Positions 2,763-35,708 of a stretch of DNA of 64,000 nt are shown here, piece by piece. The notes beneath the pieces were generated by a model, which saw nothing but the letters and a program-made list of their open reading frames with translations, did not search any database and was not told where the DNA came from. This DNA comes from an uncultured Gammaproteobacteria bacterium (lineage in GTDB: Bacteria > Patescibacteriota > Patescibacteriia > Magasanikbacterales > UBA922): NCBI GenBank assembly GCA_964418775.1, contig CAYQNA010000001.1, positions 64,446 through 128,445 on the forward strand, written 5' to 3'. The first letter of the stretch is position 1, and each line of letters starts with the position of its first letter. A program made the position numbers and the translations under genes.

Positions 2763-2924
2763 ATCTACGATATATTTCGTAGTAAATAATGACTACTTAT
2801 TGCCTAATTATAGAGATAAAATAGGGTATTGTAAAGTTATACACAGATTTTCATCGTAGTAAAAATAGGGGTCAGGTATAGTGGCTATGTAATCGATTAC
2901 ACGCTCATTACAACGGAGGAACCA

Positions 2925-4256: not shown

Positions 4257-4314
4257 CCAAGTCCCCAGAAAAATTACGACTAAAAATAATCGGTATCTGG
4301 AAAGGCCGAATATA

Positions 4315-5244: not shown

Positions 5245-5307
5245 AGAATTTTTAGAAGATTATTGTATACTGTAAGTATTCCACAGTTTAGTGGGCTTTT
5301 CAAGAGT

Positions 5308-7562: not shown

Positions 7563-8355
7563 CGTTAATAGAAACTTTACGATGTGCTGCTCGTGACATC
7601 AATGTGATTACTGATAATAATACGATGAGCCAGAATAATTGAATTCCCATAAGAACAGGCCAATCAGTCTGCCACGAGTCATATACTGTGTGCGTAATGA
7701 ACTGTGAGGCTCCAAATGGGCTGTAGCGGGCAATTTTGTAAAGAAAGTCGGGGAATAAGGCTACTGGCAAATATGAGCCTCCCAAAATCATTAGGGATTT
7801 ATCAGTAATCCAGTACAGTGGATTTATCTCTTCGAGCCAGAAAGCGCAGAGGCCAATAATGGCATAGAGTAAAAAACTTAATGTAGTCGAGAGCAGGAGG
7901 GTAATTATAACAGTTAGCAGTAAAACGGGTGAATGGAAGGTTTGGGGTAGCCCAAACATTTGTGTTAAAACAATACTCCCTAAAAATAAGACTAGTATAA
8001 ATTCGTGTAAGCCGTTACCAATTTGCCACCAAGCCCGATAAGGCAAGTACGAGATTGGTTTGTTGAATAAAACCTCGATCGTTCCAGATCGCACATCGTT
8101 CATTATGGTTCTGCACACTTCCCTAAGTCGTAAGGCATGAAATACGGTGTACATAAATAAGCCCCAGGCTGCAACTGAATAGGGAACGCCGTTTACTTCG
8201 CCACCACGCAGTTTAAAAACATACCAGTATAAATATAATACGAGCGCGCATCGAGCCGTTCGAGTAAAAGATTCGGCTAAAAAACGTCCGGGATAATGGA
8301 TTCTTTCTTTTAGTAATGTGCGAATAATACTACGCGCCAGTCGCATCTCTTTCAT
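7555..8355 (-). CDS. ABC-2 family transporter permease
   Basis: Multi-TM protein. Overlaps the ATPase gene end and the downstream permease start, an operon arrangement. Confidence 0.65.
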   Translation of the reverse strand: MKEMRLARSIIRTLLKERIHYPGRFLAESFTRTARCALVLYLYWYVFKLRGGEVNGVPYSVAAWGLFMYTVFHALRLREVCRTIMNDVRSGTIEVLFNKPISYLPYRAWWQIGNGLHEFILVLFLGSIVLTQMFGLPQTFHSPVLLLTVIITLLLSTTLSFLLYAIIGLCAFWLEEINPLYWITDKSLMILGGSYLPVALFPDFLYKIARYSPFGASQFITHTVYDSWQTDWPVLMGIQLFWLIVLLSVITLMSRAAHRKVSINGG

Positions 8356-9325
8356 AAATATGGCGGATTACACTTTCCAAATCAGTGTTATAAACATCAA
8401 GGTCACTCACCTCAAAAATTTCGAGCAAGGTTTGCAGTGCCGTTTTGACGGTGGTTTTATTGATGTCCACTGATATGGTGACTTTGGCTGCGCTTTTATT
8501 TAGGTAGGTAAGGCCGGCAGGTAGGGCGGGGAATTGTTTAAAACTATCGGCAGGTACGAGGTCAATATATTTTTCAAATACAAATGTGCGTGCTAGATCT
8601 GCAGTGGGAAGATCTTTAATAATTTGGCCATGATTGATGATAATTGTGCGGTCGCACAGGGTTTCAATATCGCCAACATCGTGCGAAGTAAGGAAAATTG
8701 TGGCGCCCTCCTCGCGATTAATGGTGAGTAGCAGATCGCGCAGTGATTTTTTGGCCACAACATCCAGGCCAATGGTTGGTTCATCAAGAAGAATGATTTT
8801 TGGTTTGTGAATAAGGGAGGCAGCGACTTCGGCGCGCATACGTTGACCAAGCGAAAGTTTGCGCACGGGTTGGTCAATAAAATCTTCGAGATTGAAAATT
8901 TCAGTTAATTCATTAATTCTTTTGGTAATTTGTTTATCACTCAAATCATACATGACGCCAAAGAACTCAAGCGAGTCAGTGAGCGGAAGATTAGGGAGGA
9001 GTTGCGAACGTTGACCAAACACGGTCCCAATTTGGTATGCTAATTTTTTGCGATCTTTGGTCGGGTCCAGACCAAGCACACTCATGCTGCCAGAGGTGGG
9101 AAATAGAATGCCCGTGAGCATTTTGATAGTAGTTGATTTGCCTGCGCCATTTGGACCAATAAACGCAATGCGTTCGCCCTTGGCCACAGAAAAGGAGATA
9201 TTGTCGACCGCAGTCACCTCACGAATTTCCGGAGACAATAAATTTTTTACCCAATTATGATTGGGGTTTTTGACGGGAAATTTAAACTTTTTCGAAAGAT
9301 TCGAAATGACAATTGATTTGGACAT
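8330..9325 (-). CDS. ABC transporter ATP-binding protein
   Basis: Walker A GPNGAGKSTT, ABC signature LSLGQRMR, Walker B ILLDEPT. Start chosen at MSKSIVISNL (ATG 9325), 4 nt after the upstream gene stop. Confidence 0.85.
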   Translation of the reverse strand: MSKSIVISNLSKKFKFPVKNPNHNWVKNLLSPEIREVTAVDNISFSVAKGERIAFIGPNGAGKSTTIKMLTGILFPTSGSMSVLGLDPTKDRKKLAYQIGTVFGQRSQLLPNLPLTDSLEFFGVMYDLSDKQITKRINELTEIFNLEDFIDQPVRKLSLGQRMRAEVAASLIHKPKIILLDEPTIGLDVVAKKSLRDLLLTINREEGATIFLTSHDVGDIETLCDRTIIINHGQIIKDLPTADLARTFVFEKYIDLVPADSFKQFPALPAGLTYLNKSAAKVTISVDINKTTVKTALQTLLEIFEVSDLDVYNTDLESVIRHIYERDATGA

Positions 9326-9329
9326 AGTC

Positions 9330-9953
9330 CTATTGTGCTGCGGCGCGACGTTTTTTGTGCCAATGACGATATGCAATCGCACCAACCACGATCACAAACA
9401 AGGCCGCGCCAATTTTGTCACCCTTGTCTGACCATTCGGCGGCTTTGGTCCAATTACTTTGCAAAGTGTAGCCGATATAAATTAAAAAAGTATTCCAAAT
9501 AATTGAGCCAGCTGCAGAATACAACATGAATGGTGCTAGTGGCATGCGCGACAGGCCCGCTGGGAGGGCGACATAGCTGCGCACAATTGGTACGAATTTG
9601 CTTAGAAAAATCGCTTTGCCACCGTGTTTAGCAAAGAATTCTTCGGCTTTGGTAACATCTTCGGGCTTGACCCAAACCCAGTGTCCCCAACGAGCAATCA
9701 CCGGGCGACCACCATAGCGACCAAGGGCATACAAAAAATACGCGCCACCCAAGCTGCCAATCGTGGTGGCCAAGAGCACGCCAACCCACGTGAATTTGCC
9801 GCTGCTAATCAAAAAACCAGAAAATGGCACAATTAATTCACTAGGAATTGGGGCAATAATCGCTTCCAAAGCCATTAAAAACGCCAGTCCAGCATAGCCA
9901 ACGCGTTCGATGAACGAGATAATATAATTGGTAAGGGCAATAAACATATGCAA
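9330..9953 (-). CDS. DedA/VTT-domain (SNARE-associated) family membrane protein
   Basis: Sequence pattern typical of DedA (ERVGYAGLAFLMALEAIIAPIPSELIV ... KFVPIVRSYVALPAGL). Confidence 0.75.
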   Translation of the reverse strand: MHMFIALTNYIISFIERVGYAGLAFLMALEAIIAPIPSELIVPFSGFLISSGKFTWVGVLLATTIGSLGGAYFLYALGRYGGRPVIARWGHWVWVKPEDVTKAEEFFAKHGGKAIFLSKFVPIVRSYVALPAGLSRMPLAPFMLYSAAGSIIWNTFLIYIGYTLQSNWTKAAEWSDKGDKIGAALFVIVVGAIAYRHWHKKRRAAAQ

Positions 9954-10003
9954 TTAGTATACGGGAATTTTCCAGGTTGCGCTAGGCTTGCTATACTCTG
10001 GGA

Positions 10004-10504
10004 ATGAAATTAAATCAATTCACAATTGAAACGCCAGTAGGGATTTTTTCAGTTATTTGCGCGCAAAAAAAGCCAGGAAAAACAGTTGTGTGCGCGGCTG
10101 GTTTTGCGGATTGCCAAAAATTGCAGGCACGCTTGCCGGTAGAGTGGCAAAACATAGTGGTGACCACGGTCCAGCGCCACCCATATAAAACCAAATTTCA
10201 GGCTTATTTTAAAGGGCAAAAACACGCTTTGAAGGGCATCCGGTGGGAACAGGCTGGCACTGAATTTAGCCGCGCTGTGTGGGCGCAGATTGCACGGGTA
10301 AAAGTCGGTGAGGTAATAACGTACGGTGAATTGGCGGCGGCGATTGGGAGGCCACGGGCTGTGCGGGCCGTCGGGACTGCGTGCGGTCGCAATTTGGTGG
10401 CAGTGTTAGTGCCCTGTCACCGCGTAGTTAGCCGAACTGGGGCAGGCGACAAATATGCGTATGGCGCTGCAGCCAAAGCATTTTTATTAGCGCTAGAGCA
10501 TTAA
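10004..10504 (+). CDS. ogt: Methylated-DNA--protein-cysteine methyltransferase
   Basis: Active-site motif PCHRVV. The motif VITYGELAAAIGRPRAVRAVGTACGRN matches the MGMT DNA-binding domain. Confidence 0.85.
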   Translation: MKLNQFTIETPVGIFSVICAQKKPGKTVVCAAGFADCQKLQARLPVEWQNIVVTTVQRHPYKTKFQAYFKGQKHALKGIRWEQAGTEFSRAVWAQIARVKVGEVITYGELAAAIGRPRAVRAVGTACGRNLVAVLVPCHRVVSRTGAGDKYAYGAAAKAFLLALEH

Positions 10505-11933: not shown

Positions 11934-13547
11934 CTATTTTTTGAGCCGACAATACTGGGCATTTATAAGTTGGGCAGTAGCTTTACCTACATTGCCCGTG
12001 CCTCTGGTATATCCGCCAGGGGTTAGGATAATGCTGCGGTACTTTTCTTGGTAGCGTATGATCGCTTTGCGTGTGGCGTTATCAAATACACCAGTGGTTG
12101 GAATATTTTTTTCATTCTCGTTTTCCTTAAGGAAGGTCTGCACCTTTTTAATTGAGTCAGGATTATTTTTTTGGCCGTAATTTAAAATTTTATCTGGATC
12201 TATGTAAATAACACAAGATGGTTTGCTTTGCTCACAAACATCCTGGTTAATTTGCAAAATTGTAGCCCCTCCGACTGTGCCTGTCCCTTTTAAAAGTTTA
12301 CTAGGGTAAAGGATGGTTTGTTTATTCTTTAATTGGTAACGAACGACGGCGTCGTATGTTTTTCTGTCAAATTTGCCGTTCACTAAAAGATTTTCGTGCT
12401 CATATTTATTTAAAAAGTTTTGTAATTTCTTTACGTGGACTTGGTCGTTCTTTTTTGTTTGTGAGAGTATTAGAGATGGATTAAGATAATCAGCACAAGA
12501 ACTCGTAGTGATTTCTCTTTGAATATTTTTTTGAGTAGAATTTGGAATTAAAGGGCGAGATATAAAATAATCATAAGGCGCCGTCATTATGCTGGGACCA
12601 GGAGCAGACGTATTATTTTGACTAATTGGTGTACTAACGCCAACTGCAACAAAGAGAGTTAGGTGATTAACGGAAACAGTTATACTTTGTTTGTCTGAAG
12701 CCACCGTGCCGCCATCACCCGCGAGACGGTATTGGTTGTTAGTGGTATCTAGATAGTATACTTTTATATTACTACTTTCATTACCCGGTAGTGGAATACT
12801 AAGCGTAATGTTTTTATCAAAAACTACACTGTCTGCTTGGGTTGTAATTTCAAGGCCTTGCCTAAAATTGAGTGACGAAGGAAGGGGGGTCGGCAGTTCC
12901 GACTCGATTTTATTTTCAGGAAGTCCAATAGTTAGTGTATATGTATCGCCATTTTCATTTTCAGCAGAAGTGTTTGAGTCTATGTATACCCAGGCTCCAG
13001 TAGTGGTGTTACGCATGGTGATGGGGGCCAATATCATACCACTGTTTGGTAGATCTAAAGGTTGAGCCATCTCGGCTGGGGTAGTAGTCGCAGTGGTTGG
13101 CAAATTGGTATCACGAACTCGGTAGGGTCTCCAATCGGTTTGCGGACGGTAGGCGCCGTCAAAATTAATAGTGCCCAATACACTTGAACTAGCGTACCCG
13201 GTAAATATCCCATTTTCGTCAATTATAGTGTGGCTAAAATCAATAAAGCCGGTGCTTTCACCCCAAGCATAACCAGACAGTTGACCCTCTGAGTTATTAC
13301 TAACCCCAGCATTGCTGGGGTTAAGGTTAATCCAGCCATAGTTTGGGTTCCAAACAGAGCCGAATATCATTGAATCGGTAATGGTTACATTACTGTTTGT
13401 GGTGCCGAAATTTAGCCATCCCGCTCTACTTGCCCAGACGTATGTGTTGGTTGTACTAATGGTTCCGGTTGTAACCGAAGCATGTGATGGGGGGATGCCG
13501 AGGACTAGGCTTATACTAAACAGTATGAGCATCCAAATCCGTCTCAT
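11934..13547 (-). CDS. Secreted protein with two C-terminal putative peptidoglycan-binding (PG_binding_1-like) domains
   Basis: Signal peptide (MRRIWMLILFSISLVLGIPPSHA). Two C-terminal repeats of the form V(K/Q)xLQxFL ... G(K/V)FD ... T..A(V/I)(V/I)RYQ match the PGBD helix-bundle signature. Confidence 0.6.
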   Translation of the reverse strand: MRRIWMLILFSISLVLGIPPSHASVTTGTISTTNTYVWASRAGWLNFGTTNSNVTITDSMIFGSVWNPNYGWINLNPSNAGVSNNSEGQLSGYAWGESTGFIDFSHTIIDENGIFTGYASSSVLGTINFDGAYRPQTDWRPYRVRDTNLPTTATTTPAEMAQPLDLPNSGMILAPITMRNTTTGAWVYIDSNTSAENENGDTYTLTIGLPENKIESELPTPLPSSLNFRQGLEITTQADSVVFDKNITLSIPLPGNESSNIKVYYLDTTNNQYRLAGDGGTVASDKQSITVSVNHLTLFVAVGVSTPISQNNTSAPGPSIMTAPYDYFISRPLIPNSTQKNIQREITTSSCADYLNPSLILSQTKKNDQVHVKKLQNFLNKYEHENLLVNGKFDRKTYDAVVRYQLKNKQTILYPSKLLKGTGTVGGATILQINQDVCEQSKPSCVIYIDPDKILNYGQKNNPDSIKKVQTFLKENENEKNIPTTGVFDNATRKAIIRYQEKYRSIILTPGGYTRGTGNVGKATAQLINAQYCRLKK

Positions 13548-25633: not shown

Positions 25634-25776
25634 AGAAGGTTAAAGACTGACCAGAATTATAACACAAAATTTGTGAGGTGAGTAGTTTGGCGATGGCTTG
25701 ACAAACAAGTGTGTTTAATTTACGATTATCCGCCGTGCGTTCACATTCACGGTATAGGTACAGGAGAAACGGAGCA

Positions 25777-26385
25777 ATGGATATCGCAAGCACAGAAAAG
25801 GGCCGAGCAGCGGCGAGCAAAATCCAGCAACAACGGATGGAGCACGCAAAGAGGGTGCGTCAGCTCCTGGCTGGGCATTTCAGACATAGCTCTTTCACGT
25901 ACCACGAGGCCCACCGACATGTGTTGGGTCAGGGTATGAAAATCTCGTCTGGAAGTTTTCAGGCAATGTGGACTGATTTCAAAAATCTGTCTGTCCTTAC
26001 CGGCCGAGGTTGCGGGCCGGGTCAATGGCGTTTCGATCCGGACGTGTACTTTGACCGGTACCGGCAGTCGATCGACTGTCCGGCACTGTCTGAGTCTGCG
26101 CCAGAATCGGTAGTGGATCCACCATCTTTACCACGTCGACCAGAGAGTCTCCACGAGCTACGCAAGCACTTGCCTGCGCTGTTGGATATTTTGCCCACCG
26201 GTCTGGTCATCAAGAGCTTACGTAAAGTCAGAGGCTCAGATAAAGCCGAGACAGGGCAAATCAAACGACTCCGGCGAATTCTAGAATTACGGATGTCTGG
26301 CTTGAGCGATTCGGAAAAGGAAGAACTTCTTACCGAGCTGCTCGTCAGGATAGCTGACCGTATCCCACCACATTCGGCTGATTGA
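25777..26385 (+). CDS. Hypothetical protein (Arg-rich, GC-rich gene)
   Basis: ATG at 25777 is preceded by AGGAGA about 10 nt upstream. Product is 202 aa, basic, with no recognised motif. Composition is markedly GC-richer than the AT-rich island downstream. Confidence 0.45.
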   Translation: MDIASTEKGRAAASKIQQQRMEHAKRVRQLLAGHFRHSSFTYHEAHRHVLGQGMKISSGSFQAMWTDFKNLSVLTGRGCGPGQWRFDPDVYFDRYRQSIDCPALSESAPESVVDPPSLPRRPESLHELRKHLPALLDILPTGLVIKSLRKVRGSDKAETGQIKRLRRILELRMSGLSDSEKEELLTELLVRIADRIPPHSAD

Positions 26386-26580
26386 AATCCAATCGGCCAA
26401 TCCCAAAAACACACCACTAATGGTGTGTTTTTAATTTGCATAATTTTAATTATATAAATTTTTTATAATTAAAAATATCCGGACCACTTTGAATTTCTGA
26501 AGCTTTTTGATTCCGTCGTGTCAACTGAGTCATGAGGCGGCAAGATTTAGGGAAAAAACTTCTCGCGCAGTAGACTGATT

Positions 26581-27681
26581 TTATGGATACGACTTAATGT
26601 TTTTTAGTCTTGGATACGGAATAACGTCTTTTATATCGTCTCTGCATAGCAGCCACGTAATATATCTTTCTATTCCCATGCCAAATCCTGCGGTGGAAGA
26701 ATACTGTGGCATGTCGCGTAAGTTTATATACCAATAGTATGGATCCGGTGGTATGTTTTGTCGCTTTAATGATTCGTAACATTCAACTGCTCTATCTTGC
26801 CTTTGACCACAACCAACTACTTCACCTCCAAATGAAAACTCTGTTAATGGGGGAAATATTAAATCAGCATTTAATACTTGGTCAGTATTTTTAGGATCTG
26901 GTTTTTGATAGAAAGGGACTCTGTCTCTGTCAAAATTAGTAATCCAAAAAGGTTCATTTGGAGAAAATATCTTTGATAACTCAATTTCTCCGATACTAGA
27001 AATATCTCTTCCATGATCTGTGTAATTTATATATTTTGTATAGCCATGCTCTTCAAGAATTTTTATTGCAGAATTAAAATCTATTTTTTTAAAAGATTTT
27101 AGGGATGCCAGTATTTTCATTGCCTGTTTAGAATGTTCAGGCGAACCACTTAAGCAATGTATTAAAAATGGTATATCTAGCATTGTTTGAGTGATATATT
27201 TTATATATTTTTCAACCAATTGCATGATGTCCGTCAAATTACCCCGCATTTCTGCCTCGCAGTGGAAAAATTGATTAAGGTGTCGTTTGTCAGGTTTCTC
27301 CCCTCGCATCGATGGTAAATAACAGTAGAGCAAATTAAAATTATTCATGAGAATTGGCTCAAAACCAAACTGTGATGAATCTACTAGAAATGTATCTAGG
27401 TTTCCAAACTGTATAGCGACAGCTTCACTGTCTGATCCTGGACCCATAGGACTGGATACAGAAGGAGTAAGCATAAACAAATCAACATTTATTCCATTCT
27501 GTTGGACAGAAAAAAAATCATCAGAGGCAAGTTTTAATACATGACGTAAATATAATATTGCATTCCAATATTTGTCTGTCGCTAGATCTTCGGTGTGACT
27601 TTTTGGATCGTATTTTGGCGGTTCCGTACCCCCTGCTTTTTCAAATAATTTGTTAATTTTTCTAAGCAAATCTTGGTTCAT
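26581..27681 (-). CDS. AsnRS-like class IIb aaRS catalytic-core paralog (lacks N-terminal OB anticodon-binding domain; archaeal AS-AR asparagine-synthetase-like)
   Basis: The C-terminus EFSFGGEVVGCGQRQ ... DPYYWYINLRDMPQYSSTAGFGMGIERYITWLLCRDDIKDVIPYPR aligns to the AsnRS motif 3 region (ELSSGSQRIH ... [30 protein letters not shown] ... VRDVIPFPR). The N-terminus aligns to the start of the catalytic domain, not to an OB fold. 366 aa, roughly 30% GC. Confidence 0.75.
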   Translation of the reverse strand: MNQDLLRKINKLFEKAGGTEPPKYDPKSHTEDLATDKYWNAILYLRHVLKLASDDFFSVQQNGINVDLFMLTPSVSSPMGPGSDSEAVAIQFGNLDTFLVDSSQFGFEPILMNNFNLLYCYLPSMRGEKPDKRHLNQFFHCEAEMRGNLTDIMQLVEKYIKYITQTMLDIPFLIHCLSGSPEHSKQAMKILASLKSFKKIDFNSAIKILEEHGYTKYINYTDHGRDISSIGEIELSKIFSPNEPFWITNFDRDRVPFYQKPDPKNTDQVLNADLIFPPLTEFSFGGEVVGCGQRQDRAVECYESLKRQNIPPDPYYWYINLRDMPQYSSTAGFGMGIERYITWLLCRDDIKDVIPYPRLKNIKSYP

Positions 27682-27688
27682 AAAATAA

Positions 27689-28675
27689 CTAGTGTGTAGT
27701 AATTATTAAAGAAACTTTGTCATTAATTGCCGATATTCTTGCCGTGCCCCCTATGGGAAATGTGGCGATCGGCATGGTGTGTCCTAATGTCATATTGGCA
27801 ACAATCGGTACAGACGTAAGTTCCTTTTTTGCTGCAATAATTTTCTTTAAAAAATCGGGTGTAATTTTTGTGATTTTTTTAAAGCGACCTATTACAATAC
27901 CCTTAATACCATTGAAATTGGGTAATTGAATAATTGATTGCAATAAGCGGTCAAAAATCATTGGGTTTATTTCCTCGTCCTCTTCTAAGAGTAATATTGA
28001 ATTTTCAAGTGATGGGAAATATTGTGTTCCTTGTAAGGAAGCAAAACAGCGCATATGTCCACCAATCAATGTTCCGGTTGCTTCGCCAGCTTTAATAATA
28101 TCAAAACCATTTGATTGGATGAATTCCCTTTTTTCTTGATCCAAGTACCAATCATCATCGCTCCAAAATTCGGAAGGGTTGATTTGATATTGGCCATCCT
28201 GCATACAACATTTCTCAAAGTATTCTTTGCTATAATCAAACCCTTTTTTTATGGCCCATGAAGAAAAATGTGGGCCATTACACCCCACCAATCCTGTTTT
28301 TGCATAAATTGCATTAGTTAGAACCGTTATATCTGAATAACCGCAAAGATATTTTGGATTTGATTTAATTAAATCATAATCAAGATAATCTAATAGTTGG
28401 TTTGAGTTATATCCGCCTATAGTCGTGAGTATTCCATCGACAGATGGATCTGAAAATGCATCATGCAAATCTTGCACCCTTGATTCAACTGATGAAGAAA
28501 AGAATTCATTAAATTCATTCACGTTTTTTCCAAAACTTACCCTAAACCCCGCATTTGCAAGTGCCTTTTCGGCTAATTTTACGGTGTCATTTGAAAGTAT
28601 TTTCATACTTCTAGAAGGAGCGATAACTCTAATATGCGAACCCTTTTTTAATTTTTTAGGTAGGATTGTTTCCAT
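27689..28675 (-). CDS. Peptidase S66 family LD-carboxypeptidase (LdcA/MccF-like)
   Basis: Nucleophile motif CGYSDITVL, His in LGHTMP, the acidic catalytic-Glu region LLLEEDEE, and N-terminal IRVIAPS. Start chosen at ATG 28675 (METILPKK...), 7 nt after the upstream stop. The track ORF extends to 28825. Confidence 0.75.
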   Translation of the reverse strand: METILPKKLKKGSHIRVIAPSRSMKILSNDTVKLAEKALANAGFRVSFGKNVNEFNEFFSSSVESRVQDLHDAFSDPSVDGILTTIGGYNSNQLLDYLDYDLIKSNPKYLCGYSDITVLTNAIYAKTGLVGCNGPHFSSWAIKKGFDYSKEYFEKCCMQDGQYQINPSEFWSDDDWYLDQEKREFIQSNGFDIIKAGEATGTLIGGHMRCFASLQGTQYFPSLENSILLLEEDEEINPMIFDRLLQSIIQLPNFNGIKGIVIGRFKKITKITPDFLKKIIAAKKELTSVPIVANMTLGHTMPIATFPIGGTARISAINDKVSLIITTH

Positions 28676-28682
28676 ATATTTA

Positions 28683-29789
28683 TTAAATATTTTCTTTAAT
28701 TGCTGACAAGAGGAATCCTTCTTCAGGAGACAGCGCATCCTGTATAAGAATTTTTTTTTCAATTTCTGGAATATACGAACTAATAAATTCTGACCCCTGA
28801 TGATTAATCCCTCGGCACTCTTCAAATTCTCGCATCATCTTTATTGTTGCTTTGGTTGATATTTTGAATTTATTTTTAAAATAAATCATTGCTCTTAGGT
28901 AAGATCTCAGAATTCGTTCTCTATTTTTATTTGCAGACGGCCGTAATCCTTCTGAGAGTAACATGCTAGATGTAATAATTGTATCCTCAAATTTAAATTT
29001 TAGTGGATCGTTAATCTTTTGAATGCCCAAAACAGGATTTGCAGAATTCACATGGTCAAGTGAAAAAAAATGTTTAAGAATAGTTGACGTGCCTAGAGCG
29101 AGCTCAACACCTAATTGTTTTTCGTTGTTTTCTAAAACAATCAAGTTGCCTATATCATGAAGAACCCCTTCTTTTTTAATGGAATAATTAAAATTTCTAC
29201 CCCACACACCGTTAACACCAACTTTATGTCTGTAGTATTTTTCAGGCATGGTGGTATCATCAAAACTTATACCTAAATTGGTATAAGTTTTTGCAAGCCG
29301 ATACAAATCTTTATCAGTATTATTTACTCGCAAAACTAGATTTTCTTTTGGTATATTTATAACATTTAACAAATAATCTAATGATTGGTCGCATAATTCA
29401 GATATTTTCTCGGGTATAACCAAAACACCCAAACTTTTAAAATAAGAGCCCCATGCTGGCACAATTGAGTCATTAAATATTTTTTGTAAATTTTGAGTTC
29501 TTACGCATTGCTGCGACATGACCAATCCGTTTTTAGGTATTTTGTTTTCCAAAAAATACTTTTTCATTGGGCTAATGTGTGAGCCAACAAATCTTACCGT
29601 TGGATCTATGCCTGAAGTAATGGTAACTGAGGGTATCTCCTTATATCCTTTTTCAGAAAAAAAGTCTATAAACGCCCGTATCATTTTTTCCGTATATTCA
29701 TGCATTTCTTCGGGGGCTGGCTTATATTCGCCAAATCCATAATCGAAAAGTGATTTATTAAAGGCAGGCTTTTTTGTATTTTTAATCAT
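28683..29789 (-). CDS. AlaRS-like class II aaRS catalytic (aminoacylation) domain paralog, truncated (no editing or C-Ala domains)
   Basis: IRAFIDFFSEKGYKEIPS ... DPTVRFVGSHISPMKKYFL ... SQQCVRTQN ... WGSYFKSLG parallels the AlaRS N-terminus (IRQAFLDFFHSKGH.VV.SS ... DPTLLFTNAGMNQFK ... SQRCVRAGG ... HHTFFEMLGNFSFG). About 368 aa from ATG 29789. AT-rich. Confidence 0.7.
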   Translation of the reverse strand: MIKNTKKPAFNKSLFDYGFGEYKPAPEEMHEYTEKMIRAFIDFFSEKGYKEIPSVTITSGIDPTVRFVGSHISPMKKYFLENKIPKNGLVMSQQCVRTQNLQKIFNDSIVPAWGSYFKSLGVLVIPEKISELCDQSLDYLLNVINIPKENLVLRVNNTDKDLYRLAKTYTNLGISFDDTTMPEKYYRHKVGVNGVWGRNFNYSIKKEGVLHDIGNLIVLENNEKQLGVELALGTSTILKHFFSLDHVNSANPVLGIQKINDPLKFKFEDTIITSSMLLSEGLRPSANKNRERILRSYLRAMIYFKNKFKISTKATIKMMREFEECRGINHQGSEFISSYIPEIEKKILIQDALSPEEGFLLSAIKENI

Positions 29790-29870
29790 ATTATAGTAGT
29801 ATGAAGTATAAAATACTACACTAACATTATGCCTATTCAGAATGAAAAATACAATATTAGTATTATTAAC

Positions 29871-30821
29871 ATGGAGACACATCCTAACCTAAAATCTATT
29901 TCGGAATTAGTTCAACTTAAAATAGGTGATATTCTTGATTTTAAAAAGATGTCCGGCGGAAGTAATGAAATTTTTTATATTAAAACCAATCATGGCGAGT
30001 TTATTGTAAAAATATACAATGAAGACAGCTCACAAAGAACTAATTTAAGTCGAGAAATACAAATGTCTAGCATATTGAAAGATTTTCCTGAAATAAGAAG
30101 TCTGGTTTTTTCTGATACAACAAGAAGTCAGATACCGTATGAGTTTGCAATATTTGAATATGTGGACGGCCAAACCTTACGATTTCTCGTTGAAAACAAT
30201 CTTTTAACAGATGAACAATTAGAAGTAATTGCTGATCAGATTTTTGATTTAATTAAAAGAATTATAGAAATTGCAACAAAAAAGTTTGGACAGCTGGATG
30301 AAAGTGGTTTGATAGGGACGTCTCAATCTTGGGTTGATTTTTTGGGTGGCATGCAAGATCCGACTACAAAAACATTTGAAAATAGTAACCTTTTCCCGGA
30401 CAAAGAATATTTAATACCGCAAGCAGTACTGGATAAACACAAAAGTGTATTTGAGCTAGATGATCCAAGATTGATCCCGATGGATTTAAATATAGACAAT
30501 ATAATTGTCACTCCCGATCAAAAAATAAAGTTTATAGACCCAGAAACTTTTTGGAGCGGTGATCCATTATGCGCATTTGCTCAATTTTATGCCCTAACAA
30601 AGGGCACCATATTAGGTGATAAATTTTTTGGGAATTTGGAGCTTTCACCAGATGATGAGTTCAAAGTTCGACTTTATGCACTCCTAGATAATCTGAATGT
30701 TCTTGCCTTTATAACGAGGGTTAATCCAGAAGGTGCTAAAGAAGCAAAGCCATATGGAAACCCAAACAAATTTTTTGATTTGATAAACGAGAATGTAAAA
30801 TTCTTTGAACAAAGTTTATAA
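29871..30821 (+). CDS. APH/choline-kinase-fold small-molecule kinase (aminoglycoside-phosphotransferase-like)
   Basis: Brenner-type catalytic loop PMDLNIDNIIV and metal-binding FIDPE. Protein-kinase-like fold length (about 316 aa from METHPNLK). Divergent from the AlaRS-like gene with an 80-nt AT-rich intergenic region. Confidence 0.6.
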   Translation: METHPNLKSISELVQLKIGDILDFKKMSGGSNEIFYIKTNHGEFIVKIYNEDSSQRTNLSREIQMSSILKDFPEIRSLVFSDTTRSQIPYEFAIFEYVDGQTLRFLVENNLLTDEQLEVIADQIFDLIKRIIEIATKKFGQLDESGLIGTSQSWVDFLGGMQDPTTKTFENSNLFPDKEYLIPQAVLDKHKSVFELDDPRLIPMDLNIDNIIVTPDQKIKFIDPETFWSGDPLCAFAQFYALTKGTILGDKFFGNLELSPDDEFKVRLYALLDNLNVLAFITRVNPEGAKEAKPYGNPNKFFDLINENVKFFEQSL

Positions 30822-30833
30822 AATGCAACGTCC

Positions 30834-32123
30834 ATGGAAAAAGTTTTAATTATTGGCAGCGCCACAAGTCGTGAATATGCTCTTGTTAGAGAGTTGTCAG
30901 TTTATTGTAAATGTAAAGTGAGTGCTTATTTATGGAGGGATAGTCATTTTATTAAAAATCATTGTACCAATTATGAAGTTGGCGATGTTCAGGATATTGA
31001 TAGAATTATTCAGTTTACTAAAAAGGTAAAGCCTGATTTTGTTATTGTTACACAGGGTGAAGCAATGCAAGTTGGAATCAGAAACCACTTAGATTCTATC
31101 AACATACCGTGTATATCGCCGACAAAAGAGCAAAGTAAATTAGAAAATAGTAAGATTTTTTGTCGACAATTTATTAAAGAGATAAACGAACACTTTGTAC
31201 CAAAACACAAAGCGTTCGACGTAAAAAATATTGCTGATTTAGATGGTTATATTAATGAATTAAAATCTGACAAGGTAGTATTAAAATTTGATGGACTCAT
31301 GAACTCTGAAGGGGTGAAGATTTATAACTTGAAAAAAGATTCAAAAAAAGATTTAAAAAATCAAGCAAATACATGGATTAAAAAAGTCAACGGCAAAATA
31401 GTTGTGGAAGAATTTGTTGAAGGAGATGAAGTTTCAATAATGAGTTTTGTCGATGGCACGAATATTGTACACATGCCCCCTGTTAAAAATTATAAGAAAA
31501 TCTGGGAAGGTGATGGTGGCGATAATACTTCTGGAATGGGTTCAATTACGATTGGCAAAACATTGGGTTTTTTAACAAATAAAGACGTCCTCAAATTAGA
31601 AGAAGTTAATAACCTAGTGTTTGAGAAAATAAAAAAGGATTTTTCAGAAAAATATATAGGTATATTGATGGGTGAATTCATAATTAATAATGGGGAAATT
31701 AAGGTTATTGAGTATAATACACGTTTTGGTAATCCTTCAACAATAAATATTTTAAATCTGTTAGATACTAGTTTTTTAGAAATTTGTAAATCAATGATAA
31801 GTGGTACGCTAAATAATACGCCTATTAAATGGAAAAATTTAGCATCAGTTTCTGTGTCGGTTGTACCAAAAGGTTATCCGTACTCAAAAGAAAATGTTGG
31901 AAAAAAAATAAATTTAACCAAACTAGAAAAAGAAGAACTGGGGCATATATTTTTTGCAAGCTTAAATGTGGATTCTAATAAAGATATCACACTTATGAAT
32001 TCAAGAAATTTAACAGTTTGTGTTGTTGGAGAAGAAATAAATAATTGCCGAAGCAGAATAATAAAAATTTTAGATAAAATTGGTGGGCCTATATATTTTA
32101 GAAAAGATATAGGAACTTTTTAA
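30834..32123 (+). CDS. PurD-like ATP-grasp ligase (phosphoribosylamine--glycine ligase homolog)
   Basis: MEKVLIIGSATSREYALVRELS matches MKVLVIGNGGREHALAWK. DGGDNTSGMGS matches DKDTGPNTGGMG. IKVIEYNTRFGNPST matches PKVIEFNCRFGDPET. The C-terminal GGPIYFRKDIG matches CFCRKDIG of PurD. Confidence 0.7.
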   Translation: MEKVLIIGSATSREYALVRELSVYCKCKVSAYLWRDSHFIKNHCTNYEVGDVQDIDRIIQFTKKVKPDFVIVTQGEAMQVGIRNHLDSINIPCISPTKEQSKLENSKIFCRQFIKEINEHFVPKHKAFDVKNIADLDGYINELKSDKVVLKFDGLMNSEGVKIYNLKKDSKKDLKNQANTWIKKVNGKIVVEEFVEGDEVSIMSFVDGTNIVHMPPVKNYKKIWEGDGGDNTSGMGSITIGKTLGFLTNKDVLKLEEVNNLVFEKIKKDFSEKYIGILMGEFIINNGEIKVIEYNTRFGNPSTINILNLLDTSFLEICKSMISGTLNNTPIKWKNLASVSVSVVPKGYPYSKENVGKKINLTKLEKEELGHIFFASLNVDSNKDITLMNSRNLTVCVVGEEINNCRSRIIKILDKIGGPIYFRKDIGTF

Positions 32124-32149
32124 GGCCTTTGATTATTTAGACATAATTT

Positions 32150-32722
32150 ATGTTAAAAGTTGGGTTTGACATGGATGGAGTTATTATTGACAACACAGTG
32201 TTTAAAAGTGATTTGTACCGTCAGAAAACTGGTATAAAGCTTGAATGTTGGAAGTTTAATTCAAATGTTATTGATGATTACATAACTAATACCCCTCTTC
32301 GTAAAGAAATAGACAAAATTAGCGCCATATCTGTACATCATAAAACAACTGAACAGAACATGCGCAACATTTTATTAGAAATAAAGTCCCACGCAGACAT
32401 TTTTTTGATTTCCTCAAGAGGAAAAAGTGAAGAGGGCGTGTTGGCAGCGCGACAAACCATTAAAAATCTAAAATTAGATACTATCTTTGGAGATAATATT
32501 TTTTTTACAAAAAACGATGGAGATAAAATTGAAAAAATTAAATTTCTTGAAATTGATTTTTTTATAGAGGACAGATTCGATGTTATTAGTATGCTACCTA
32601 AAAAAACAGCCATACTATATGATCAATTTTTTCAATGGAAAAAATATAAAAAATATATTATTATTAAATCACTCTTGGACATTATTCCGTTAATTAGATT
32701 TCAGGAGTACAGTGATAACTAA
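32150..32722 (+). CDS. HAD-superfamily phosphatase, 5'(3')-deoxyribonucleotidase (NT5C)-like
   Basis: Motif I FDMDGVIID (DxDGV) at the N-terminus and length about 190 aa are typical of NT5C-like HAD nucleotidases. Confidence 0.6.
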   Translation: MLKVGFDMDGVIIDNTVFKSDLYRQKTGIKLECWKFNSNVIDDYITNTPLRKEIDKISAISVHHKTTEQNMRNILLEIKSHADIFLISSRGKSEEGVLAARQTIKNLKLDTIFGDNIFFTKNDGDKIEKIKFLEIDFFIEDRFDVISMLPKKTAILYDQFFQWKKYKKYIIIKSLLDIIPLIRFQEYSDN

Positions 32723-32724
32723 GA

Positions 32725-34014
32725 TTGGGTGATGAATGTTACTATATGATCGGTACAGGAATTATCTTAAAACCAAATGGCGATGAAATTTTTATTAAGG
32801 ATGATGAGACTTTGGAATCTCTTATAAAAACAAAAATTACGAAAGAAATGGGAGCTTACTTGCGGAGAGCAGAGTTAGGAGGAAAAGTGAATGAAAGTAT
32901 GGTTGTGCAAAAAGCTATAGATTTGGGTTATTTATCTCACACCCTAAATACAAATGACGGTAGTGCAACATTTACCTCTAAGGGGAAAATAATAAAAGAA
33001 TTGATAACACAGTGGAGTAAATCAATCGCCAAAAATAAATTACAAGCTTTAGAAGTAGAAACTCCGGATATATATAAAGCTAATAAAGTTATATTATCAA
33101 TGCAAGATCAATTCGGCGAACCCCCTTTTTATATTAATGAAGAGGAAATATTAAGACCTGCATCTGATTTTGGGGTTTTTTCTTTGTATGGAGGGAAAAT
33201 ATTACAAGAATCAATTATTCCGCACAGAATTTTTGAGCTGGCAAATTGTTTTAGGCAGGAAGACGTGAATAGGGTTGATTTATTAGCAAGACCTAGGAAA
33301 TTTTCCATGCCTGATCTACACACATTTATTCAATTGAAAGATCTAGATAATGAACTAAAAATTCAGGAAGATGTTTATCTAGATGCAATGAGATCCATTG
33401 AACTTGAGTTTCTTGTTTCTGTTAGGACAACAACAGAAGAATACACTCAATTAAAAAAACATTTTTTTTATTTAGCTCAACAAACTAATAAAGAAGTTTA
33501 TATTAATATAGTACCAAGCAGGAAACGTTATTGGACAACTAAAATTAAATTCATCTACGTAGATAGTCTTGGCAATAATTTACAATTAACTACTATACAA
33601 ACTGACCACGATTCTGCCAAACTTTTTAATATCAAATTAAAAGATACTTATCCGAGTGTGCTTCATTCGTCGCTTGGCAGTATAGAGCGGCTGATGTATG
33701 CCCTTATTGACGAAGGATTAAAGGGAAAACATTTTATGTTACCACTATGGATAAGCCCCGTTCAAGCTATGATTTTTGGGGATAAAAAAAATTTAATGAT
33801 TGGGAGATTAGTGAGATATGAAAAATGTAGTGAAACTAGTATAAAATCAAATATGTTTGAAAGCTTTTTTAAAATTGGTATTCCTTATGTAATTGATGTT
33901 GATAATAACATTGCTTATAGCAGAGATGACCAGGAACAGGCTGACATGGTAATCAATAAAATTGAAATTATTAATAAAAATTTTTTGAATCTACCTAAAT
34001 CAAATAAATTTTAA
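32725..34014 (+). CDS. ThrRS-like class IIa aaRS paralog (catalytic + anticodon-binding domains only; no N1/N2 editing domains)
   Basis: Motif 2 RIFELANCFRQEDVNRVDLLARPRKFSMPDLHTF parallels the ThrRS sequence [33 protein letters not shown]. Motif 3 GSIERLMYALIDE followed by HFMLPLWISPVQAMIFG parallels GSMERFIGILTEE ... FPTWLAPVQVVIM, the catalytic/anticodon-domain junction. The motif 1 region GKIIKELITQWSKSIAKNKLQALEVETPDIY also matches. Confidence 0.7.
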   Translation: MGDECYYMIGTGIILKPNGDEIFIKDDETLESLIKTKITKEMGAYLRRAELGGKVNESMVVQKAIDLGYLSHTLNTNDGSATFTSKGKIIKELITQWSKSIAKNKLQALEVETPDIYKANKVILSMQDQFGEPPFYINEEEILRPASDFGVFSLYGGKILQESIIPHRIFELANCFRQEDVNRVDLLARPRKFSMPDLHTFIQLKDLDNELKIQEDVYLDAMRSIELEFLVSVRTTTEEYTQLKKHFFYLAQQTNKEVYINIVPSRKRYWTTKIKFIYVDSLGNNLQLTTIQTDHDSAKLFNIKLKDTYPSVLHSSLGSIERLMYALIDEGLKGKHFMLPLWISPVQAMIFGDKKNLMIGRLVRYEKCSETSIKSNMFESFFKIGIPYVIDVDNNIAYSRDDQEQADMVINKIEIINKNFLNLPKSNKF

Positions 34015-34015
34015 T

Positions 34016-34582
34016 ATGGCGAAAATCATACTGACTGGGCCACATTATTGTGGAAAAACCACTGTACTTAGAAAATTGAAGGATTACTTTTTAGATAACC
34101 CTGAAGTGGGTTTTATTGAAAGCGATGGAAGTCGCTGTCCAATTAGTTACAAAGATGTGGATTATTTGCGAGCAAATCCCAAAACAGAAATAAACATAAC
34201 ATATTGGATGATTGCAGATAACATAAAAAGAGAGATTGAGGCAAAAAATAAATATAAAAATTTAGTATTTGATCGCTGCGTCATAGATCAGCTTGCATAC
34301 CCCGCAGAAATTACCGGTAAAGATAATTTACCAAAATCCATAAATTTATTTATACGAGAATGGCTTATATTTGAACCATACGATAAGATATTTATATTTC
34401 CCGCAAACCCTGATTTTTTGAAAGCAGGTACAAATAATACTGGAGATGTAAATTTTCAGAAAAATATTGAACAAAGATATTTAGAATTAACCAAAGAATT
34501 TAATCTTTCGTCTGAAATACTCCCCTTAGATCAAGATAGACAAATTGATTTAATTTTAAATTATTTGAAGTCTAATTTATAA
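34016..34582 (+). CDS. P-loop NTPase, nucleoside/nucleotide-kinase-like (AAA_33/dNK-like)
   Basis: Walker A GPHYCGKTT at residues 8-16. 188 aa, a size typical of small-molecule kinases. Starts 1 nt after the ThrRS-like gene stop. Confidence 0.55.
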   Translation: MAKIILTGPHYCGKTTVLRKLKDYFLDNPEVGFIESDGSRCPISYKDVDYLRANPKTEINITYWMIADNIKREIEAKNKYKNLVFDRCVIDQLAYPAEITGKDNLPKSINLFIREWLIFEPYDKIFIFPANPDFLKAGTNNTGDVNFQKNIEQRYLELTKEFNLSSEILPLDQDRQIDLILNYLKSNL

Positions 34583-34931
34583 ATTGCCTGAAGCTCGTGT
34601 TTTTGTGTAAGTTAGAAAAATATAATCCGTTTTTTTGGCGTGTCGTCAATTATGGAAATTGGCGTGCAAAAGTTACAAGATTCCATAATCGGTGGCCAAT
34701 TGAAACTTTTTATTTTTACGGTTTGCAAAAAATCCCCGCATTACGGAGACTTTCGCCCTGCACGGCTGATTATATTTTTCAAAAGTAACTCACTGATCAC
34801 TGCACCAACAAGTGGTTAAGTAATCAGTGAGGGGGAGCGTCGTGCGAAACGATTCATACTCCCGACTGTGTCATCCGCTTGCGCGATTGACTCGGGTCGG
34901 AGCGTGAGCTCCCCAACACCTCCTTAGTTGC

Positions 34932-35708
34932 CTACTCCTCCGGAATGCAGCCCTCGATGGGCTCGTTGTACCGGCACTCGTTGCCCGACCCTGCAAAGTG
35001 CAGACAAACATTCTGCAGACAGGGATCATCGGTGACCCCGCAGTCCGTATCCGTCTGGCAAGTGTCGATGCACTTCACCTCGGGCTCGGACGTGCACAGA
35101 TTGTTGCAGAACTGACCGACGCCCATGCTGGGCTGGCAGGTCGAGTCTTCCTCACAGGAGTAGAGCAGCATACCAACACTGCTCCCGTTGCAGACCTTGT
35201 CAGCTTTGCAATCCGCGTGCGTCTTGCATGGCTTGCATCCCTCCACTGTTGCGTGGGCGCAGAAACCCCCATCGCAAGTTTCAGTCGTGCAGCCCTGGCC
35301 GTCGTCGCAGTCCTCGTCGGACTGGCACTGGACCTCGCTGGCCCAGATCTCTGGTGTGTCGGTCGGCTGCGACGCTTCTTCCTCGGCCTTCTGGCTCTGG
35401 AAGTACATGATGAGGTCTTCGAGCATCTCGTCGGAGAGGGTGAACGTGCCCTGTTCCACCGAGAACATGGTGGGTGCTCCGACCTGACCTTCCTCACCCG
35501 TGAGGTCGGTACCGTCAAAACCAACGGCCGGTTCCGGCCAATCGACGCCCGGCTCACCCATGGGACCGTCGACCCCGTGGGTACCGTCGCCGTTGTTGGT
35601 CTCGTCCACGCTGTTCGCGGTGGTACACACCGGGTCCGGGCTCACGCAGTCGCGCGAGCAGGAAGAGACGAGGGCAACGAAGACGGACAGCGTGTTGAAC
35701 TTATTCAT
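34932..35708 (-). CDS. Cysteine-rich secreted lipoprotein (repeated CxxDxDC-type modules), GC-rich and probably foreign
   Basis: Signal peptide with lipobox (LVSSC). About 28 Cys in repeated motifs (CQSDEDCDDGQGC, CKTHADCKADKVC, CQTDTDCGVTDDPC). Composition is strongly GC-rich. Long ORFs on the opposite strand look like GC-driven artefacts. Confidence 0.55.
   Translation of the reverse strand: MNKFNTLSVFVALVSSCSRDCVSPDPVCTTANSVDETNNGDGTHGVDGPMGEPGVDWPEPAVGFDGTDLTGEEGQVGAPTMFSVEQGTFTLSDEMLEDLIMYFQSQKAEEEASQPTDTPEIWASEVQCQSDEDCDDGQGCTTETCDGGFCAHATVEGCKPCKTHADCKADKVCNGSSVGMLLYSCEEDSTCQPSMGVGQFCNNLCTSEPEVKCIDTCQTDTDCGVTDDPCLQNVCLHFAGSGNECRYNEPIEGCIPEE

Follow-up and report, generated by a model that had tools for sequence, protein, structure and literature searches.

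Why should the genome of an uncultured patescibacterium carry, side by side, the catalytic cores of three different class II aminoacyl-tRNA synthetases (aaRSs)? The question is raised by eight open reading frames (ORFs) in an AT-rich segment of contig CAYQNA010000001.1, within a 64,000-nucleotide stretch of DNA, hereafter the window, that was analysed as a whole. They encode proteins resembling AsnRS, AlaRS and ThrRS (ORF1, ORF3 and ORF7), an S66 serine peptidase (ORF2), an APH-fold kinase (ORF4), a PurD-like ATP-grasp ligase (ORF5), a HAD-superfamily phosphatase (ORF6) and a P-loop kinase (ORF8). A preliminary description, made from the sequence alone, had suggested a pathway that couples activated amino acids to a nucleoside-like scaffold and carries its own detoxifying hydrolase. 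The current work points, with moderate confidence, to a mobile biosynthesis-plus-immunity cluster for an antimetabolite of aminoacyl-nucleotide or aminoacyl-nucleoside type, in the class of agrocin 84, ascamycin and processed microcin C. Natural Trojan-horse aaRS inhibitors are few, namely agrocin 84, microcin C, albomycin and ascamycin.

A foreign island in the ftsK-rpoB interval

The eight ORFs are intact and span positions 26,581-34,582, with gaps of 7, 7, 39 (divergent), 12, 26, 23 and 1 bp between them. The likely start is an internal ATG in ORF2 (28675, 328 aa), ORF3 (29789, 368 aa) and ORF7 (32746, 422 aa), in agreement with the gene calls. The GC content of the island is 0.320, against 0.479 for the remaining window, and the 79 other 8.2-kb windows fall between 0.447 and 0.502 (standard deviation 0.016). 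GC at third codon positions (GC3) is 0.22-0.28 in the eight island genes and 0.45-0.53 in the host genes ftsK, recA, rpoB, rpoC, thrS and gatB. The tetranucleotide distance, normalised for mononucleotide content, is 0.59 for the island and at most 0.12 for every other window. The AT-rich foreign block of eight genes first noticed by eye is thus borne out by measurement. By these tests the compositionally foreign, strain-specific island covers positions 26400-34693; its edges, at about 26,400 and 34,693, do not coincide exactly with the outermost genes.

A close relative (locus L048) shares with the window the backbone rpoC-rpoB ... ftsK-HTH-recA-spoIID-murJ at 79-87% nucleotide identity. The island is absent from its ftsK-rpoB interval, which holds only an 88-aa ORF and a gene for a 249-aa methyltransferase. 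About 9 kb of the window (25,674-34,693) stands in place of this methyltransferase gene. Its 3' end survives as a 96-bp remnant at 34694-34788, which forms the right junction (blastn, L048 6038-6133 against window 34788-34694, 79% identity); the remainder of the gene has no counterpart in the window. The left junction between host and island was recovered at 100% identity in an independent Logan assembly (L001). Foreign composition, the empty site in L048, the gene remnant at the right junction of the window and the left junction reproduced in L001 together identify the island as a horizontally acquired, strain-specific insertion. No integrase, flanking tRNA or convincing terminal repeat was found at its borders; recombinase or integrase genes lie near the cluster only in some of the other loci (L005-L007, L042-L044, L051, L052 and L055).

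Two recurrent modules

The eight genes had been taken as one pathway unit. Comparison across genomes shows a composite of two recurrent modules: module A, made up of the AlaRS-like, S66 and AsnRS-like genes, and module B, made up of ORF4 to ORF8. The closest island, L002, is collinear with window positions 26582-32695 (ORF1 to ORF6) at 73.5% identity; L002 has no ORF7 or ORF8, so these two are extra in the window.

A scan of species-representative genomes with the AlaRS-like protein gave 31 loci, mostly in Patescibacteria. Other carriers of module A are Calothrix, including a plasmid of a cultured strain, metagenome-assembled genomes labelled Gamma- or Alphaproteobacteria, Magnetococcales and one archaeon, and parts of the module also occur in Bradyrhizobium, Peribacillus and Calothrix. 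Of 34 non-redundant loci, 32 have an S66 gene next to the AlaRS-like gene. The AsnRS-like gene is present in 24 of the 34, a class I methyltransferase gene lies directly upstream in 22 and an HD protein occurs in 12, the usual order being HD, methyltransferase, AlaRS-like, S66, AsnRS-like. Variable partners include radical S-adenosylmethionine (SAM)/SPASM, short-chain dehydrogenase/reductase (SDR), HAD, beta-helix and ATP-grasp proteins and a histidine kinase. Both kinds of partner, hydrolases and kinases, occur in homologous islands. Viral contigs lack the AlaRS-like family, and the plasmids of PLSDB gave only two weak partial matches to it (at most 40% of the query, 29-36% identity).

A gut variant of module A carries a HIT protein and a P-loop kinase, with HIT neighbours in L024-29. 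A standalone GNAT gene lies near module A in L005, and in L047 the GNAT domain is fused to the AlaRS-like protein, with an AgnB1-type methyltransferase beside the triad. The L047 cluster of GNAT-AlaRS-like, AsnRS-like and S66 genes (7798-9639) adjoins TrbL/TrbC-type type IV secretion genes, which suggests carriage on a conjugative element. A decarboxylase at L047 was considered as an analogue of the N-terminal domain of MccE and set aside; it looks like an ordinary diaminopimelate decarboxylase and lies on the opposite strand.

Module B has its own conserved order. Core-only ThrRS-like relatives of about 300 aa were found in very AT-rich contigs within a collinear cluster whose first genes encode an AsnRS-like core, an isoaspartyl peptidase (370.7 on TIGR01975, cutoff 331), a 220-aa protein, a PurD-like protein and a HAD protein of the ORF6 family. 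It continues with an APH-like protein of the ORF4 family, the ThrRS-like protein, an AAA_28 protein of the ORF8 family, a Peptidase_S51 protein and an HD protein. Beside this module lie a full-length archaeal-type AspRS gene and a large serine recombinase gene.

Full-length synthetase genes of foreign composition accompany both modules. GlyRS genes were found in L012 (two copies, 1842-3269 and 8864-10270), L026 (12079-13479) and L035 (3379-4863). The travelling clade represented in these three loci is 77-78% identical, has a GC content of 0.49-0.56 in loci of 0.37-0.44, and lies inside or beside the AlaRS-like/S66 operon; the second, host-like GlyRS of L012 is 66% identical to this clade and has a GC content of 0.35. 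The archaeal-type AspRS beside module B (L042 2800-4098, L044 8946-10259) is of the non-discriminating kind, with a GC content of 0.41-0.44 in contigs of 0.27 and 46% identity between the two copies. These travelling GlyRS and AspRS proteins could be resistant copies of the target or dedicated suppliers of aminoacyl-tRNA. No tRNA gene was found to be consistently tied to the operons.

Three truncated synthetase cores

ORF1 (26581-27681, minus strand, 366 aa) is an AsnRS-like, AgnA-like class IIb catalytic core that lacks the anticodon-binding domain (OB-fold). Pfam tRNA-synt_2 matches residues 96-359 with 96.5 bits. The protein falls below the equivalog cutoffs of NCBIfam asnS (154.7 against 414) and of the best asparagine synthetase A (AS-A) model, NF005055 (141.7 against 389). 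AsnRS is its best match among solved structures, at about 89 bits, and the archaeal asparagine synthetase AS-AR reaches 38 bits, in the C-terminal part only. The 26 aligned family members share motif 2, the segment GGE.VG.GQR and motif 3 (GFG.G.ER), and every class IIb catalytic element is kept. An exhaustive search gave 94 representative clusters at E <= 1e-30, mostly of 330-380 aa, and fusions of the core to HIT, RimL-type GNAT, methyltransferase and Asparaginase_2 domains were seen.

AS-AR and bacterial AsnA are, like ORF1, class IIb cores without an anticodon domain, and the annotation pipeline PGAP names ORF1 homologs 'asparagine synthetase A'. ORF1 differs from AS-AR in its length (366 aa against about 294 aa), in its low score on the AS-A model and in always travelling with S66 and other partners.

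ORF3 (28683-29789, minus strand, 368 aa) is a truncated AlaRS-like protein, consisting of the aminoacylation domain and a helical tRNA-recognition domain of about 100 aa, with neither an editing domain nor a C-Ala domain. The Pfam tRNA-synt_2c match spans only model positions 2-135 of 552, and 109 homologs of about 370 aa were collected. The AlphaFold2 model has a mean predicted local distance difference test (pLDDT) score of 95.4, and its best Foldseek matches are catalytic fragments of AlaRS, with template-modelling (TM) scores of 0.64-0.68. By sequence, the central active-site segment alone finds no AlaRS in the PDB. Residues were placed by aligning the family profile with an approximate E. 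coli AlaRS reference (hhalign probability 96.5%). On this approximate reference, N215 of ORF3 falls on N212, the invariant E229 on D235 and A231 on G237; a Thr occupies the position of the motif-3 Arg, and a near-invariant K239 follows three residues on. By the same approximate alignment R97 and F117, on the ATP/adenine side, are kept along with N215. The active site thus appears remodelled, including the side that would face the ATP gamma-phosphate.

These features recall AcmF of ascamycin biosynthesis, a truncated AlaRS-like enzyme with a D-to-E change that N-alanylates a nucleoside sulfamate using Ala-tRNA from AcmD. AcmF was compared by description: ORF3 is likewise truncated to the aminoacylation domain and a partial tRNA-recognition domain, without editing or C-Ala domains, and by the approximate reference it too has Glu (E229) where the Asp responsible for binding the alpha-amino group would stand. 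A pair like AcmD and AcmF is found in the Peribacillus cluster, in the form of a 595-aa AlaRS and a 386-aa AlaRS-related protein. ORF3 differs from AcmF in that an N-to-Q change of AcmF is not shared, since N215 is retained, as are R97 and F117. The window also differs from the ascamycin system in lacking a dedicated AlaRS partner and the genes for a sulfamate nucleoside, and its hydrolase partner is an S66 peptidase rather than the alpha/beta-hydrolase AcmE. Stand-alone synthetase homologs had been regarded beforehand as tRNA-independent ligases; that view needs a qualification, for the AlaRS-like enzyme may require aminoacyl-tRNA as AcmF does.

ORF7 (32746-34014, plus strand, 422 aa) is a ThrRS-like class IIa catalytic core without the N-terminal editing and TGS domains. 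Pfam tRNA-synt_2b matches it with 51 bits; among the thrS models the archaeal-type NF003068 is best (189.6 against a cutoff of 484), and another gives 146.8 against 384. In this rare family, for which only nine homologs were found, R170/E172, E314/R315, H192 and H307 are invariant, so that motifs 2 and 3 and two Zn-ligand His residues are kept; the Zn-ligand Cys is replaced by 'ASDFG'. The anticodon-binding domain is reduced to a shortened, gapped and degenerate remnant. In the structural model the core has pLDDT values of 75-92 and residues 329-422 lie below 50. The statement that all three cores are stripped of accessory or editing domains therefore holds for ORF1, which has no OB-fold, and for ORF3, which has no editing domain, and needs modification for ORF7, which keeps its anticodon-domain remnant.

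Could these cores simply be charging enzymes of a reduced genome, split or kept as spare copies? Neither ORF1 nor ORF7 has lost its class II catalytic motifs, and ORF3 retains part of its tRNA-recognition domain. Against this stand the missing anticodon-binding domain of ORF1, the missing motif-3 Arg, editing domain and C-Ala domain of ORF3, and the scores of all three, which lie far below the equivalog cutoffs; the ORFs are not full-length synthetases with misplaced ends. The host moreover has its own complete thrS (55375-57123, 660 bits, cutoff 384) and gatB (60923-62446 on the minus strand, 539 bits, cutoff 338), as the preliminary description had said, and the island genes are foreign and absent from the close relative L048. 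A housekeeping role is thus extremely improbable.

Relation to agrocin 84 and agn-type clusters

The closest precedent for ORF1 is AgnA of agrocin 84, which was missing from the parallels first listed. AgnA is a truncated AsnRS without the anticodon domain (PMC4392301). It lies in the cluster on which the making of agrocin 84 depends and, according to secondary sources, has been proposed to join the amino-acid-like moiety to AMP via the phosphoramide bond (PMC4392301, PMC8323819). AgnB2, a LeuRS, provides immunity, and AgnB1 is a methyltransferase.

The agrocin 84-type Agrobacterium plasmid pAtCFBP5877c was called agn-type from its gene content, which includes an AgnA-position gene, methyltransferases, leuS, an amidohydrolase, an S66 peptidase and a radical SAM enzyme; AgnA of pAgK84 itself was compared by description only. 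ORF1 matches the AgnA-position protein of pAtCFBP5877c with 142.7 bits (E = 4.5e-43, 32% identity over 91% of its length), a higher score than to any solved AsnRS. Both are class IIb AsnRS-type cores without an anticodon domain, and motifs 2 and 3 are intact in ORF1. The S66 peptidase of the same plasmid cluster matches ORF2 with 103 bits. Loci related to the island further resemble the agrocin 84 type in having SAM enzymes beside the core, a mobile-element context and extra full-length aaRS genes. The island in the window differs in that it has no LeuRS or other immunity synthetase, exporter, methyltransferase, radical SAM, SDR or PEP-utilising gene, and in that it adds the AlaRS-like and ThrRS-like cores, the PurD-like ligase, two kinases and the HAD phosphatase. 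A correspondence between the ThrRS-like family of ORF7 and the AgnC1-position protein was tried and rejected (hhalign probability 0.4%).

Cultured bacteria carry similar assemblages. In Xenorhabdus bovienii CS03 the AgnA-like gene is accompanied by genes for a methyltransferase, an S66 peptidase, a nucleoside phosphorylase, leuS, an aaRS-related protein and a major facilitator superfamily (MFS) transporter. The Peribacillus cluster has, besides its two AlaRS-type proteins, ATP-grasp, MFS transporter, methyltransferase, AgnA-like and S66 genes. The matches in Bradyrhizobium elkanii USDA 76 reach 340 bits for S66, 435 bits for the AsnRS-like protein (ORF1), 196 bits for HAD and 186 bits for the methyltransferase labelled c3.

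The Bradyrhizobium cluster (L053, pUSDA76 306884-310669) lies on the symbiosis plasmid beside nodU and is flanked by IS630 and IS3; identical copies occur in plasmids of B. barranii, and we know of no function assigned to it. On the X. bovienii CS03 megaplasmid (L055) a XyeA/XyeB cyclophane cluster, of the class of RiPPs (peptides made on the ribosome and modified after translation), with an ABC/HlyD exporter occupies positions 4164-5552, about 3 kb from the AgnA-like cluster and with recombinase genes between the two. It looks like a plasmid region that gathers secondary-metabolite cassettes.

The S66 peptidase and associated hydrolases

ORF2 (27689-28675, minus strand, 328 aa) is an S66 serine peptidase of the BA_5613/Lmo1638 'MccF-like' subfamily. 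Pfam gives 124 bits for Peptidase_S66 and 89 bits for S66C. Among solved relatives, 4e5s/5fd8 (BA_5613) score 378 bits and Lmo1638 343 bits; the protein is nearer to MccF (B. anthracis 155 bits, E. coli 119) than to LdcA (65-74) and reaches only 105 on the NCBIfam LdcA equivalog, against a cutoff of 378. Aligned to 4e5s, the protein keeps the GYSD, EED and GHT segments, which by analogy with the family are taken to hold the catalytic Ser/Glu/His triad.

Four families are known to detoxify aminoacyl-nucleotides of the microcin C type: MccF (S66), MccG (S51), MccH (HIT) and MccE2 (GNAT) (PMC9239234). All four are tied to the synthetase cores described here as neighbours or fusions, with S66 in the core of module A, S51 in module B, HIT in L024-29 and GNAT in L005. 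The Asp/Asn theme also fits the logic of a target hit by mimics of Asp-adenylate. The island differs from microcin C in that Pfam finds no ThiF-like (MccB) domain in its eight proteins; a short MccA-type ORF was not searched for. No ThiF-like gene was found in the related loci with precomputed Pfam calls either. Lacking an MccB-type enzyme, the island is not an mcc (RiPP) cluster. The c3 methyltransferase was not used as an MccD counterpart, since 5FCD, at 41 bits, ranks 14th among generic class I methyltransferases.

The same hydrolases raise the possibility of a non-toxic (iso)aspartyl metabolism, in which a beta-aspartyl or other aminoacyl conjugate (cyanophycin-like, an isoAsp-dipeptide, an envelope decoration or a cofactor-like riboside) would be built and recycled, the AsnRS-like core working like AsnA or AS-AR with an amine other than ammonia. 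Module B does contain an S51 peptidase (PepE/cyanophycinase-like), a bona fide isoaspartyl peptidase and an ATP-grasp ligase, AsnRS-like cores are fused to Asparaginase_2 isoaspartyl-peptidase domains, and the NCBI label of the ORF1 homologs points the same way. Such a metabolism leaves several features unexplained: the P-loop nucleoside-kinase-like, HIT and HD partners and a nucleoside phosphorylase, the AlaRS-like and ThrRS-like cores, the full-length aaRS genes of foreign GC and the kinship with agn-type clusters; ORF1 also scores far below the AS-A cutoff. We consider both the conjugate cycle and the AsnA-like role of the core quite unlikely.

Four very large fusion proteins of 1298-1569 aa (P0160, P0176, P0177 and P0186) combine a carnitine/choline acyltransferase with Asparaginase_2, in some cases with HIT, and with an AsnRS-like core at the C-terminus. 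Their architecture looks eukaryote-like.

Ligase, kinases and phosphatase of module B

ORF4 (29829-30821, plus strand, 330 aa) is an APH-fold small-molecule kinase (Pfam APH, 43.3 bits) in whose family K61, D219, N224 and D237 are invariant; its homologs score 521 bits in L002-4 and 109-111 bits in module-B loci. ORF5 (30834-32123, plus strand, 429 aa) is a PurD-like ATP-grasp amide ligase with GARS_N, GARS_A and GARS_C domains and homologs in L002-4 (667 bits) and L042-46 (293-316 bits). ORF8 (34016-34582, plus strand, 188 aa) is a P-loop kinase of nucleoside/nucleotide-kinase type (Pfam AAA_28, 41.9 bits), with weak Thymidylate_kin and DTMP_kinase matches and weak similarity to thymidylate kinase in the PDB. 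The P-loop and DR motif are invariant in its family, and homologs follow immediately after the ThrRS-like gene in L042-46 (115-134 bits).

These domain calls, like those of the three synthetase cores and the S66 peptidase, agree between Pfam, NCBIfam and the preliminary description. The exception is ORF6 (32150-32722, plus strand, 190 aa), which had been called an NT5C-like nucleotidase. It has no Pfam or NCBIfam match, and its sole PDB hint is the HAD phosphatase TM_1254 (E = 0.11), so that the NT5C assignment is unsupported. Its small family conserves four HAD motifs (D7xD9 in GFDxDGV, S88, K126 and D140-D141), and ORF6 is therefore classed as a HAD-superfamily phosphatase; the homologs in module-B loci give faint HAD_2 matches.

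Module B might at first sight suggest salvage or primary metabolism, with AS-AR-type asparagine synthesis and purine or nucleotide salvage (PurD, kinases, nucleotidase) acquired to offset a reduced genome. ORF5 stands essentially at the purD equivalog cutoff (TIGR00877, 287.5 against 288), the Asn-tRNA route of the host uses GatB, and ORF8 could serve as a nucleotide kinase, ORF6 as a phosphatase. The context of ORF5-type genes speaks otherwise: in the loci examined it is never a pur operon, the companions being ThrRS-like, APH-like and HAD genes and Asp-specific hydrolases, and the island holds no other purine genes. The host has its own tmk within the window (63317-64000), and the partnership of AlaRS-like and S66 proteins has no salvage role. 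A salvage cassette is accordingly very improbable.

A possible pathway and its weighing

Foreign origin, domain architectures, conservation of catalytic motifs, synteny and agn-type homologies are matters of observation; the substrates, the order of the steps, the tRNA dependence of the AlaRS-like step and the toxicity of the product are what we infer. In such a pathway, the AgnA-like ORF1 would activate Asn, Asp or an analogue with ATP and couple it not to tRNA but to a nucleotide or ribosyl scaffold or an amine, thereby forming the warhead. The AcmF-like ORF3 might then add alanine to an amino group of this intermediate, possibly from Ala-tRNA, the nucleoside part of the intermediate occupying the former ATP pocket. 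Module B would supply or extend the scaffold: the PurD-like ORF5 may form an amide on a ribosylamine-type amine, the ThrRS-like ORF7 may activate Thr or a beta-hydroxy acid akin to it, and both kinases (ORF4 and ORF8) together with the HAD phosphatase (ORF6) could set the phosphorylation state. The MccF-like ORF2 would cleave the aminoacyl-nucleotide amide bond and so protect the producer.

Several lines of evidence favour such a biosynthesis-plus-immunity cluster. These are the synteny across phyla, the homology of ORF1 to the AgnA-position protein, the AcmF-like AlaRS core, and the association and fusion with S66, S51, HIT and GNAT enzymes. Foreign full-length aaRS genes also travel with the clusters (GlyRS in L012, L026 and L035, AspRS in L042 and L044, leuS in Agrobacterium and Xenorhabdus), and both the AsnRS-like and the ThrRS-like family keep their adenylation motifs. 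The idea that synthetase cores act outside translation on a nucleoside-like scaffold, next to an MccF-like detoxifier, therefore gains strong comparative support from synteny, AgnA, AcmF and the immunity families.

Other points weigh against it. In agrocin 84 itself the role of AgnA is a proposal. None of the eight island genes encodes an exporter, a methyltransferase or a resistant full-length aaRS, so the island may be incomplete or serve another purpose; in related clusters an exporter and a resistant-type full-length aaRS are often present. S66, S51, isoaspartyl peptidase and Asparaginase_2 enzymes are also ordinary hydrolases of Asp- and isoAsp-peptides, and the c3 methyltransferase does not appear specifically MccD-like. 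The central active site of the AlaRS-like protein is too diverged for comparison at the sequence level; the D-to-E mapping depends on an approximate E. coli AlaRS sequence, and the likeness to AcmF on its description. The placing of pAtCFBP5877c with the pAgK84 type is likewise deduced from gene content.

The lack of an exporter and of tailoring enzymes such as a methyltransferase or radical SAM protein would suit an island devoted to resistance only, where the S66 peptidase, kinases and phosphatase would inactivate imported aminoacyl-nucleotide or nucleoside antibiotics and the truncated cores would serve as binding decoys or modify adenylate mimics. S66, S51, HIT and GNAT enzymes are known resistance enzymes whose homologs mostly stand alone, APH-fold kinases are classical antibiotic-modifying enzymes, and two close relatives of the S66 peptidase, BA_5613 and Lmo1638, belong to Bacillus anthracis and Listeria. 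The order AlaRS-like, S66, AsnRS-like is, however, conserved and tightly coupled across phyla, and the related clusters, with their exporters, ATP-grasp ligases, radical SAM enzymes and extra full-length aaRS genes, look like typical producers. The homologous AgnA lies within a cluster needed for production, and the PurD-like ligase has no obvious role in resistance. A resistance-only island is unlikely on this balance, and a biosynthesis-plus-immunity cluster remains the preferred interpretation.

A more general proposal is put forward tentatively. In Patescibacteria and scattered other bacteria, AsnRS-, AlaRS- and ThrRS-derived cores and a PurD-like ligase might together assemble a short aminoacyl- or peptidyl-nucleotide toxin with neither a ribosomal precursor nor a nonribosomal peptide synthetase, immunity being provided by interchangeable MccF-, MccG-, MccH- and MccE-type enzymes. 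If such a synthetase-core assembly logic, not described before, exists, it would be the first antibiotic-type pathway family characteristic of ultrasmall episymbionts, possibly directed against hosts or competitors, and would show the way in which agrocin-84-type compounds acquire their P-N or amide warhead bond.

Distribution and significance

A 2021 review of Trojan-horse aaRS inhibitors reported agn-like clusters only in Ensifer and Actinobacteria. The current work shows that a far wider mobile family centres on the AgnA-type core, always joined by an S66 hydrolase; this family combines AcmF-like AlaRS cores, ThrRS-like cores, ATP-grasp ligases and every known type of microcin C immunity enzyme. 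The family is especially common in Patescibacteria, which are usually thought to be almost without secondary metabolism. A literature search found no paper combining MccF with Patescibacteria or the Candidate Phyla Radiation, and none describing the triad or the module. Cultured carriers are Bradyrhizobium elkanii USDA 76, Peribacillus psychrosaccharolyticus FDAARGOS_1161, Xenorhabdus bovienii CS03 and Calothrix parasitica NIES-267. Since members occur in such cultured, tractable strains, the chemistry, the targets and the role of the S66 enzyme are directly testable. New scaffolds for aaRS inhibitors and aaRS-derived biocatalysts could result.

Neighbouring features of the window

No riboswitch or other Rfam element was found between 25,000 and 37,000, where the sole match, to U4 snRNA (E = 0.12), is attributed to chance; a promoter and terminator scan stayed at shuffle level and was uninformative. 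Three large host ORFs, at 53737-55182 (plus strand, 481 aa), 57184-59367 (minus strand, 727 aa) and 11934-13547 (minus strand, 537 aa), have no NCBIfam match, and those of 481 and 727 aa have no Pfam match either.

Two further segments adjoin the island. Between ftsK and its left edge lies orf224 (25711-26385, plus strand, GC 0.53), which is absent from L048, matches no family and is without a relative in the loci retrieved; directly after it comes a GC-rich hairpin with a T run behind it (about 26405-26432). On the other side, an ORF for a Cys-rich protein of 258 aa with a probable signal peptide (34932-35708, minus strand) has a GC content of 0.61 and a GC3 of 0.79, against 0.48 in the host. 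It has no Pfam match and is absent from the syntenic site of L048, forming a second, independent indel beside the island. Its three segments of differing composition make the ftsK-rpoB interval resemble a hot spot for insertions.

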